A stretch of 27,320 bases of DNA from Candidatus Lambdaproteobacteria bacterium (lineage in GTDB: Bacteria > SAR324 > NAC60-12): positions 1 through 27,320 of the forward strand of contig DTUH01000213.1 of the NCBI GenBank assembly GCA_012964265.1, in the 5' to 3' direction. The notes beneath the pieces are model-generated. The model was not told the origin of the DNA and ran no database searches. It saw only the letters and a program-made list of their open reading frames with translations. Positions 25,076-27,320 of this stretch are shown piece by piece (positions within the stretch are counted from its first letter, which is position 1; each line of letters starts with the position of its first letter). The position numbers and the translations under genes were made by a program.

Positions 25076-25714
25076 ATGAGTCGAAGTGGTGGTTCTGAGG
25101 GAGGGTGGTTAACGACTTTTGCGGATTTAATGACCCTGTTATTCTGCTTTTTCGTTTTGCTGACCACGCTTTCCACACAACCTAAAAATTGCGGCGAACT
25201 GGAACAGTTTCTCAAAAATAACAAAGATAAGTTCAGTAAGTATGAACTTCGCTCTACCAAGCTCAGTTGCATCGTTTCGTTGCCGCAGGATTTCCTTTTT
25301 CGTTCCGGAGACGCCGTTCTCAAGAAAGGAGCTTACGAAGCTCTCTCACCACTTTTTTTTCAAATCCTTAAAATACCGGAACATAAATCAGATTTGCTGA
25401 CCGTGGAAGGTCACACGGACAATGTACCAATGCGCAGCAAAAAGTTTCCCAGTAACTGGGCGCTCAGTTCTGCGCGGGCTACCATAATTGCAAGCATGCT
25501 CATAAACCGTATCAAATATCCGGAAAATTCCATCTCAATTGTCGGATATGCTGACACTCGCCCCAAGACCGGTTACACGGATGCTGCCGGTTCACCCCTC
25601 AAAGGCAGTGCCCTTAAAAAAGCCCGTAAGATAAACCGGCGCGTCGAAATCATCCTCACAACTCCACCAAAATCCATAGAGTATGCAACTCTTCTTTTTG
25701 GAGAGGAGAATTAA
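25076..25714 (+). CDS. motB: MotB/PomB-family stator B subunit, short, with an OmpA-like peptidoglycan-binding domain
   Basis: WLTTFADLMTLLFCFFVLL with the conserved Asp; VEGHTDN, NWALSSARA, GYADTRP and NRRVEI. Confidence 0.88.
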   Translation: MSRSGGSEGGWLTTFADLMTLLFCFFVLLTTLSTQPKNCGELEQFLKNNKDKFSKYELRSTKLSCIVSLPQDFLFRSGDAVLKKGAYEALSPLFFQILKIPEHKSDLLTVEGHTDNVPMRSKKFPSNWALSSARATIIASMLINRIKYPENSISIVGYADTRPKTGYTDAAGSPLKGSALKKARKINRRVEIILTTPPKSIEYATLLFGEEN

Positions 25715-25932
25715 ACTGGATTCGTTTCAAAACCGAATAATTCCCGCACTGAAAATCGCAACACTTCGGATAGACGATCAAGCGTTTCAAAAGAAGGCGC
25801 ATGAATGCCGCGTTCCATGAAAGACACCATCTCCACGGACAAATCAAGCTTCTCCGCCAACTGCTCTTGAGTCAGACCACGGACTTTCCTCATCAGTTTT
25901 AATCGTTTTCCAAATTTCTTGCGCAACTCCAT
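25711..25932 (-). CDS. XRE-family helix-turn-helix regulator (C-protein-like size)
   Basis: FGKRLKLMRKVRGLTQEQLAEKLDLSVEMVSFMERG. Start is placed at ATG 25932; the ORF track gives 25941. Converges on motB with a 4-bp overlap. Confidence 0.88.
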   Translation of the reverse strand: MELRKKFGKRLKLMRKVRGLTQEQLAEKLDLSVEMVSFMERGIHAPSFETLDRLSEVLRFSVRELFGFETNPV

Positions 25933-25939
25933 GTTGCAC

Positions 25940-25968
25940 ATAATAACGTAGTATTATTTTGTGTACAA
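25940..25968 (-). promoter_or_regulatory. sigma70-like promoter positioned for a leaderless XRE transcript
   Basis: Minus strand TTGTAC (25968-25963), N17, TATTAT (25945-25940), 7 nt, ATG. No SD is present. Inverted repeat ATAATA-N6-TATTAT at 25940-25957 overlaps the -10. Confidence 0.5.
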
Positions 25969-26280
25969 CGTAGCCATACTGCGTTGTTCTCAGAGAAATG
26001 AACTATTATTATTCGGATTAGGACAATTTTCTTTTATCTTAAAAAATAGTTAATATTTGGGGGATCATTTGATTGTTCCTTTGCGGTTCCTCACTAAAAT
26101 AGGTTCATCTCCGAAGAAAAGAGGCCCCTCCATTTTTATGTCTGTGAATGCAAGGAAATTAGAAAGATCATTCAATTAGGAACTTTAGTATTTATTAGGT
26201 ATCGACCTCAATCTACCTGTCTGTAAAGTTTTGAATTGGTGACTTTATAGACTCTTTTATAATTTTACACAAAGGTCAAA

Positions 26281-26646
26281 ATGAAAATTTTCATAACAAT
26301 ATTGATTCTATTCTCAACTATTTTTTCCCTAAACGGATGTGCTAATATTGGTTCAATGAAAAAAACAAACCAACTTGAACCTGGAATGACCACAAGTCAG
26401 GTTAAAGGAATTTTGGGTAATCCAGGATCAACTGAATTTAAAGGGAACAAATGGATCTGGAAATATTCTTTACATAAACCATGGGTGGGGTTTGTTCCTC
26501 ACTATCTAGTATTTGGAAAAAAGTCAAAACTTCTTGAAGCATGGTTTGCAGATCAAAACGAGTACTTCAGACAACAAAGTCTTTGGTTACAGGCTTACCC
26601 ATCTACACAAAAACATGAAATTGATTTGAATATAAAGAATGACTAG
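26281..26646 (+). CDS. SmpA/OmlA (BamE-like) domain lipoprotein
   Basis: Signal peptide with lipobox LNGC; QLEPGMTTSQVKGILGNP...WKY pattern. Visibly more AT-rich than the core genes. Confidence 0.78.
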   Translation: MKIFITILILFSTIFSLNGCANIGSMKKTNQLEPGMTTSQVKGILGNPGSTEFKGNKWIWKYSLHKPWVGFVPHYLVFGKKSKLLEAWFADQNEYFRQQSLWLQAYPSTQKHEIDLNIKND

Positions 26647-26699
26647 TTATTTGTGGAAATTAGGGCAAATTCGAGATTACCTATGCTTTATAGATACGG

Positions 26700-26803
26700 C
26701 TAGAGTAGAGAACCATGTTGCCCCTGCCCTACTACATCAAATAGTGCAAACGGTTTTCCCGTACATTACTATTTGATACCCCGGAACGGTGTCCGGGGCT
26801 ACC
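26700..26803 (-). mobile_element. Degenerate group II intron 3' remnant (mini-D4, D5-like, D6-like)
   Basis: Minus strand reads GGTAGCCCCGGACACCGTTCCGGGGTATC-AAATAGTAATGTACGGGAAAACCGTTTGCACTATTT-GATGTAGTAGGGCAGGGGCAACATGGTTCTCTACTCTAG. The TG..CGGGAAAACCG..GCAC..TTTGATG and CTCTACTCTA features match bacterial group II intron 3' ends as I recall them. Confidence 0.6.
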
Positions 26804-26856
26804 AATCTCAAGAGAAGAAATACTACCACTTGGTTCAGCCTACGGTCAAAAAAATA

Positions 26857-26919
26857 TTTTCTGAACGTTCAGAAAAATCCTGAGCAAAGCAAATTATTCT
26901 GAACGTTCAGAATAATTTG
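26857..26919. repeat. Two perfect palindromes sharing the core TTCTGAACGTTCAGAA
   Basis: TTTTCTGAACGTTCAGAAAA (26857-26876, 20 bp) and CAAATTATTCTGAACGTTCAGAATAATTTG (26890-26919, 30 bp). The cores are 38 bp apart and each is followed by TGAGCA. Confidence 0.9.
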
Positions 26920-27320
26920 AGCAGATCCGCCCCATTTCCGTGATACTCCAGCAGTCTCCTTCTTTCCGAATCAGTTTTTGACGAGAGCTCATTTCGAGAA
27001 GCAACCGTTCCAGGGAGATCTTAGTAAATATTTCATGCTTCAATTCAATTTTTTGTTTTGCTCCATCTTCCAAGCACTTTAAAACCAATTTTTCGGCTTG
27101 TGCCATTGGGCTATTTTTATCTTTGAAGGAAAGCAGCAAAAAGGTATAAATTTTTTCTGCAAGTGTTTCCAGGTGTCCAGAAAGATCCGCCCTCCCCCGG
27201 AGATAAAGCGCCAGTTTATCCTCTGTTCCGGAATTCCTTACAAACACTGTAGCCGCAGGAATTCCCTTTTCCAAAACACGCAGCAGCAGCATTTCGGGCT
27301 CCTCCTGTCGTTTCACAATG
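26894..27320 (-). CDS. 3' part of a probable alpha-D-phosphohexomutase-superfamily protein with a C-terminal extension (5'-truncated by the window edge)
   Basis: The frame stays open to the window end. VFVRNSGTEDKLALY resembles the domain-IV motif VRxSGTEPxxRxY. Confidence 0.55.
   Translation of the reverse strand, partial: IVKRQEEPEMLLLRVLEKGIPAATVFVRNSGTEDKLALYLRGRADLSGHLETLAEKIYTFLLLSFKDKNSPMAQAEKLVLKCLEDGAKQKIELKHEIFTKISLERLLLEMSSRQKLIRKEGDCWSITEMGRICSNYSERSE

Follow-up and report, generated by a model that had tools for sequence, protein, structure and literature searches.

What is the short, hairpin-rich spacer that lies between two converging genes of a marine SAR324 bacterium, and does its RNA still do anything? 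The question arises in a 27,320-nt stretch of DNA from a Candidatus Lambdaproteobacteria genome (assembly GCA_012964265.1, contig DTUH01000213.1), taken here at its full length and called the window. A first-pass annotation, whose coordinates and letters both proved correct on re-reading, had described the minus strand of the spacer as a D4–D5–D6 RNA of group II intron type that kept its stems and lost its catalytic signatures, and had suggested that it was domesticated. The analysis described below leads to a more modest reading. The 78 bases at 26777-26700 (minus strand), which comprise D5 and D6 and adjoin an unrelated small repeat hairpin, are very probably a mobile bacterial group II intron reduced to its dead, 5′-truncated tail, a drifted and non-splicing piece in which the D5 stem survives in a shifted register. 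As delimited by a covariance-model match and by comparison with a class of related introns, this decayed 3′-terminal fragment is composed of an AUC linker, D5, a GAU linker, D6 and a last base G.

Detection of the Element

General-purpose searches passed the element by. At gathering level, Rfam found no intron family in the whole window, and RF00029, the model proposed in the first-pass annotation, whose gathering threshold is 40 bits, gave no match on 26400-27100 even at E ≤ 10. BLASTn for further copies, the other check proposed there, had a divided outcome. In its own genome the spacer is single copy, but among 61 related genomes its positions 26765-26735 produced a 31-nt match (90%) that coincides exactly with the D5 of a genuine intron in G023, itself scoring 45.9 bits with RF00029 and 76.9 bits with RF02005. 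A BLAST search with the region of another copy in the same genome, on contig C128, missed the window copy, so that a covariance model was needed.

Such a model, R1, was built from two copies only, the one on C128 and one from a genus relative (G004), with the window left out. It matched 26773-26700 at 50.3 bits (E = 4e-11), the runner-up in the window reaching 11.3 bits, and with it no canonical intron of the family scored as high as the window copy (at most 47.2 bits). The AUC at 26777-26775 agrees with the class consensus AUCGG. Compared with the canonical copy L187, the window copy is identical at 55 of 72 positions (76%), with D5 and D6 both covered. The proposed derivation from group II intron D5–D6 is thereby upheld, R1 supplying the covariance-model similarity on which it had been made to depend, and so are its parts: the D5-like hairpin is present at 26771-26739 with ACGG-GAAAA-CCGU as its upper stem and loop, and is followed by GAU and a D6-like stem that ends in CUCUACUCUAG at 26700. 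The silence of RF00029 in 26400-27100 and the lack of a gathering-level Rfam match in the window would also suit a chance resemblance, in which an ordinary cluster of intergenic hairpins merely looks like D5 and D6. That reading is refuted by the score of an independent lineage model and by the agreement with canonical copies at 76% of 72 columns spanning both domains, and its probability is practically negligible. Remodelling of D5 into a perfect hairpin in a shifted register is why the element escapes RF00029.

The Intergenic Spacer

Upstream of the relic and co-oriented with it lies the C-terminal part of a phosphogluco/mannomutase-like gene (26894-27319, minus strand), whose match to PGM_PMM_IV is below the cut-off (17.9 vs 23.1 bits, E = 0.003). 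From the other side a BamE-like lipoprotein gene (26281-26646, plus strand) converges on the relic, its stop 53 nt from the relic's 3′ end; no homologue of this gene was found in the 17 other genomes of the genus. Read along the minus strand, the spacer presents twin palindromes, a flank of about 50 nt, a REP-like hairpin, D5, GAU and D6. The palindromes, two 16-nt copies of TTCTGAACGTTCAGAA at 26859-26874 and 26897-26912 (together spanning 26859-26912), stand 38 nt apart, the first overlapping the last codons of the gene and the second being followed by a minus-strand T-run. The pair is conserved where the orthologous gene ends in most of the genomes of relatives and metagenome lineages that were read, with a single palindrome in a few, and one metagenome contig is without one 38-nt palindrome unit. 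Single copies of TTCTGAACGTTCAGAA occur at other loci and have the look of a putative protein-binding site.

The 3′ flank of the phosphomutase-like gene (26894-26820, minus strand) includes a CCAA...UUGG segment with GUAGUA that had been offered as a D3 relic. This assignment was rejected: the flank matches at 78% a locus downstream of the orthologous gene in G013 (C215:22426-22505) that has no D5/D6, and is host sequence.

The short hairpin that had been counted, as 26803-26775, with the D4–D5–D6 unit does not belong to the intron either. Located at 26803-26779 on the minus strand, it consists of GGTAG followed by CCCCGGA-loop-TCCGGGG, and the intron homology ends exactly at it. Its family, with the plus-strand consensus TTT-CCCCGRAACGGAGTYCGGGG-CTACC, has 41 matches at up to 2 mismatches in 7 of the 18 genus genomes (loci examined: L005 and L021-L055), and the reversed control pattern has 0. 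Since it is a dispersed REP-like repeat whose copies elsewhere have flanks unrelated to D5/D6, its candidacy as D4 was rejected. The stems of the family show compensatory swaps among G-C, A-T and C-G pairs, and tandem arrays of 36, 37, 54 and 73 nt occur. A short GC-rich hairpin with conserved flanks, dispersed as well as tandem copies and compensatory stem swaps are all features held in common with REP elements. Y1 transposase genes are present in 11 of the 18 genus genomes and were not found in the assembly of the window. Four copies (L025, L026, L032 and L052) have conserved, coding-looking flanks in common, and a second REP variant, CCCCGCCACGTAGTGCGGGG, precedes the C128 relic by 36 nt.

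Structure of D5 and D6

R1 aligns D5 without gaps. The homologue of the catalytic triad, A26770, G26769 and U26768, then reads AGU and keeps a G.U wobble, and in the upper stem and loop (26762-26750) no base departs from the class consensus. Given the gap-free alignment and the match of the preceding AUC to the AUC of the class, the 5′ strand is to be read as UAGUAAUG against AAGCCGUG in the class, and the 3′ strand as CACUAUUU against CACGGUUU. Under the alignment of the first-pass annotation the triad had been read as AAU next to a UAA bulge, an arrangement rejected on the same two grounds. Its statement that the AGC/CGC triad is gone is accordingly right as to the changed C, but overstated in that AGU with its wobble remains; AGC itself is found in 13 of the 17 aligned class members. 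Pairs 4 and 5 of the stem, C-G in the class, have become U-A and A-U, both of them compensated; pair 1 is U.U, and pair 6 is A.C, a state also found in C128. The lowest-energy stem, however, is in a register shifted from that of canonical D5, and is a perfect 10-bp inverted repeat in which the 10 nt at 26777-26768 are 100% complementary to 26745-26736 (minus strand, overall 26777-26736).

D6 (26735-26703, minus strand) has fared differently. Three changes in its 5′ strand turned GAGGGA into GUAGUA, and of the six canonical pairs scored, three no longer form, so that the claim of preserved stems holds for D5 but not for D6. The homologue of the branch A, A26706, is buried in the lowest-energy fold by pairing of GUAG (26735-26732) with CUAC (26708-26705); this pairing had been foreseen, but it occurs in a shifted register. 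At the last position the C of the class is replaced by G, which bears out an AG rather than an AY end. Of what a functional D5–D6 would have, the copy thus shows neither an AGC/CGC triad nor a bulged branch A nor an AY end.

The rest of the ribozyme is missing as well, as had been stated. Rfam gave no match to a D1–D4 family in the window, where no 5′ GUGYG was found either, and there is no RT/maturase ORF near the element; the stretch between the stop of the phosphomutase-like gene and the REP hairpin is only ~90 nt long and is host flank. In the genome of the window neither RVT_1 nor GIIM was found, nor was RF02005 at E ≤ 1; the genome is 84% complete, so that an RT may have been missed. With D1–D4 and the IEP missing, the triad C changed, the base of D6 disrupted and the 3′ end AG, the relic almost certainly would not splice, in agreement with its earlier description as splicing-dead.

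The Parent Intron Class

A pattern scan for this D5 subtype over 185,579 species genomes returned 91 matching stretches, from which 63 distinct D5–D6 sequences were read. The hosts are Desulfobacterota, Zeta- and Gammaproteobacteria, SAR324, archaea and others, and one match, labelled 'SAR324 cluster bacterium', agrees with the G004 copy in its D5–D6 and in the letters on either side, which makes the genus of the window SAR324-like. The class consensus is nearly invariant, with AUCGGAAAGCCGUG, an ACGG-GAAAA-CCGU cap, GAUGAGGGAGGGCAGG and the end CUACUCUAC. In a 17-sequence class alignment, 96% of the D5/D6 structure cells are paired and covariation is above that of all shuffles. Identity at 70 of 72 D5–D6 positions between MAGs of Gamma- and Zetaproteobacteria implies recent horizontal spread.

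A full-length member of the class encodes an En-less RT/maturase of ~455 aa (TIGR04416). In a PDB search, the best solved relative of the IEP of L129 was the GsI-IIC RT (1.2e-58), with a IIB protein at 3.6e-47, so that, of the RTs with a solved structure, those of class C (IIC) appear by sequence to be the nearest to the class RT. Class C introns are known to insert after the stem-loops of intrinsic terminators or attC sites (Robart et al., 2007, as cited in PMC4424553). The present class resembles them in its short, En-less IEP nearest IIC RTs and in relics that lie downstream of co-oriented genes, two of them directly after hairpins. It differs in that its triad is AGC and that no attC-like site was seen, and its membership, assigned on RT similarity only, is putative. 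Three copies inspected start at about UUGACCG/GUGUCCG, and since a hairpin precedes the 5′ end in only one of them (L187), class C insertion behaviour is at most putative for the class.

Truncation is usual in the class, and many members are incomplete. Internal deletions, loss of the ORF or a break inside D5 are seen in G023, G032, L187, L110, L125, L127 and L182; homology is lost inside D5 in L125, L127 and L182, and internal deletions occur in G023 and G032. Several further observations were made along the way. The Desulfobulbaceae MAG CAXXDG01 has about 20 class matches (L111-L152 and others), and L111 and other Desulfobacterota copies have a long insert in the D6 region that runs into ...GUAGUAGCCGCGUGCGGCG and is possibly a nested or tandem intron. 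In G032 and G023, two relatives from the same family, RF00029 matches a 96-nt sequence below threshold (~29-32 bits, e.g. G032:C28:341367-341462) in >30 copies, a candidate D5/D6-like repeat family.

Sister Copies and Distribution

Two sister copies of the relic are known in the genus: the one on contig C128 of the same genome (L056:1461-1536; RF00029 35.1 bits, below cut-off) and the one in G004 (L069:1501-1572; RF00029 34 bits). Both are tails without an RT, situated after a DUF790 gene and a VapBC pair, and both have the triad AAC; the same G-to-A triad change is present in L125 and L184, copies from other phyla. All three genus copies come after a co-oriented gene and between convergent genes, and the two in the window's genome adjoin REP hairpins at different truncation points. 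R2, a covariance model made from all three, the window included, found no fourth copy in 64 genomes of the order, the scores falling from 84.7 to 48.8 bits. Upstream of the C128 relic, the ~130-nt segment L056:1258-1391 is another dispersed repeat, which recurs at ~70% in several genus genomes and on contig C272 of the same genome.

Metagenomes provided 80 loci with relatives of the upstream gene, the best 50 of which were searched with R1. Among these 50 the element is present in L201 only, a locus of the same species (99% protein identity) where its sequence is identical. Lineages at 86%, 76% and 71% protein identity have other sequence at the site of the element. The element is absent from the same site in sister lineages, an insertion polymorphism. 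The difference extends beyond the relic: the interval 25715-26893 is a species-specific, AT-rich island of ~1.1 kb (G+C 0.37 vs 0.44) that contains an Xre-type HTH ORF (25711-25941, minus strand), the BamE-like gene, the REP hairpin and the relic, and the other sequence in those three lineages makes it private to the window species. Most relatives read have a MotB/OmpA-like gene that converges on the phosphomutase-like gene directly after the second palindrome. No attC-like or other long inverted repeats were seen around the cassette-like gene of the island. The species was recovered in 17 DNA runs of marine and vent-plume studies, and 19 runs from 11 studies have part of the stretch; in the DNA contigs the element is unchanged. 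The data are contigs only; the one RNA run, X18, covers just 25616-25662 and 25858-25953, with imperfect matches, run X19 is probably DNA, and none of the RNA contigs reaches the element.

Decay Versus Selection on Structure

L187 and L129 come from different classes of Proteobacteria and are identical at 70 of 72 positions (97%), against 55 of 72 for the window copy and L187. Of the 17 changes that separate the latter two, 11 run from GC to AT; the region has a G+C content of 37-42%. This divergence pattern is, as judged from the comparison of sequences, the signature of relaxed constraint. Lineage homology, insertion polymorphism and relaxed constraint, by which a truncated relic is recognised, are all found at this locus.

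The stability of the D5 hairpin is at odds with simple random decay and counts against reading the element as a mere relic. In a decay simulation, nine random substitutions were placed in the 42-nt D5 region starting from the class consensus, under three models. An MFE as low as the observed −14.5 kcal/mol or lower was reached in 8% of uniform, 1.8% of AT-biased and 0.5% of GC-weighted AT-biased trials (P = 0.08, 0.018 and 0.005), and a perfect stem of at least 10 bp, a statistic chosen after the sequence was seen, in 0.06-0.26%. With frequencies this low, the D5 hairpin is better kept than independent decay predicts. What has been kept, however, is not the catalytic structure. Six of the nine changes in the D5 region improve the shifted pairing and two break pairs in the canonical register; likewise, the changes in D6 gained the shifted GUAG/CUAC stem and broke the canonical one.

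Hairpin-templated (quasipalindrome) mutation is an established mechanism that yields clustered changes in one arm and thereby perfects a palindrome. The perfect stem is most simply read as the outcome of such mutation or of weak generic selection for a stable hairpin, not of maintenance of a catalytic D5, and templating may be what made the stems perfect. In the first-pass annotation, both strands of D5 were said to have changed together with pairing preserved, and selection on structure was deduced from this. Two pairs are indeed compensated, but the perfect stem lies in a shifted register; the compensatory change is real, but ambiguous, since templated mutation would give a shifted perfect stem as readily as selection would, and a single sequence with a post hoc statistic cannot decide between the two. 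Within the species, L201 differs from the window by 23 SNPs in 3423 nt, of which 0 fall in the element; only 0.7 would be expected there, which leaves this comparison without power. A bolder proposal would be that SAR324-like bacteria keep a few D5–D6 tails of dead introns beside REP hairpins as working RNA hairpins of 3′ UTRs, or else display a selection-free 'hairpin healing' in which quasipalindrome templating re-registers the stems of dead ribozyme fragments and mimics covariation. We regard this as a long shot.

Alternative Explanations

The excess stability of D5 bears most directly on the idea that the structure was exapted, the REP hairpin and the hairpins derived from D5 and D6 serving together as a 3′-end barrier, or as a terminator or stabiliser of the converging transcripts, under selection for stability and not for catalysis. 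Three consecutive stable hairpins do stand between convergent genes (z = −1.9 for the 161-nt fold), the D5 stem exceeds what random decay predicts, and changes in the 5′ strands of D5 and D6 both create complementarity in new registers. Such a role is nonetheless unlikely. A scan of 26700-26803 on both strands found no terminator-like site, neither hairpin being followed by a T-run, which also tells against the terminator suggested earlier; the upstream gene already has its own palindrome and T-run, sister lineages do without the element, and the z-score of the fold is unremarkable. The fate of the catalytic parts tells against a different kind of activity, that of one half of a split intron whose D5–D6 RNA would complement, in trans, a D1–D4 RNA encoded elsewhere. 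D5 can act in trans in vitro, and the upper half of D5 is intact here; yet the genome has no RF02005 match at E ≤ 1, no exon-like coding sequence adjoins the 3′ end, the triad has lost its C, and both the base of D6 and the last nucleotide have changed, all of which makes a split intron highly improbable.

The sister copies invite yet another reading, that the window, C128 and G004 modules go back to D5–D6 but now form a functional ncRNA or repeat family of a new kind, which might, for instance, tag cargo genes for an RT or recombinase that moves them. The genus (g1) does hold three such modules, all of them intergenic and without RT or D1–D4, C128 and G004 have the change to AAC in common, and the window copy sits inside a species-specific island. 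The AAC triad, however, also occurs in L125 and L184 from other phyla, there are differences between the copies at 17 of 74 positions, biased towards AT, and the only hits of R2 in the 64 order genomes are these three, the next ones (at most 48.8 bits) being ordinary introns. The neighbours, a DUF790 gene, VapBC and the phosphomutase-like gene, are unrelated, and no RT or GIIM was found in the genome; neither further conserved copies nor a transcript nor an RT or recombinase alongside the modules came to light. A functional family of this kind is very unlikely. Domestication of the D5–D6 tail more generally is unsupported, given an element seen at this site in the same species only, three copies in 64 genomes, no RT and AT-biased divergence.

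Origin and Significance

The dead tail of a mobile intron could have arisen in a few steps. An intron would have inserted downstream of the phosphomutase-like gene and co-oriented with it, in a variable spacer and right after a REP-type hairpin. Its last ~78 nt would have been left either by reverse transcription that stopped early or by later deletion of the rest, and the remaining piece would then have drifted, mainly from GC to AT. Abortive reverse transcription after insertion behind the hairpin may thus be the origin of the fragment. Loss of the 3′ terminus is the commoner route of fragmentation (PMC4496777), and the 3′ end kept here goes against it. In other respects, the relic conforms to what has been described for truncated and inactivated introns, which make up most bacterial group II intron copies (Zimmerly & Semper, 2015, PMC4424553), and for the fragments of RmInt1 (PMC4496777): it is partial, has neither IEP nor core, lies in an intergenic region among repeats, is confined to one lineage and has diverged fast. 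It differs from them in comprising the last 78 nt only and in having its D5 remodelled into a perfect shifted hairpin. Dead intron fragments being common in bacteria, the finding is real but ordinary.

Its interest lies in what it teaches about recognising such pieces. A real intron remnant can sit wholly below an Rfam model and yet be plain to a lineage-specific one. Compensatory changes in one decayed hairpin are no evidence of domestication; here the register is shifted, the element is species-specific and no RT was found. A very widely transferred intron class is documented, with near-identical D5–D6 across phyla, and a REP-like repeat family is added for a marine SAR324-like genus, with relics of the intron class lying after such hairpins in the genome of the window.
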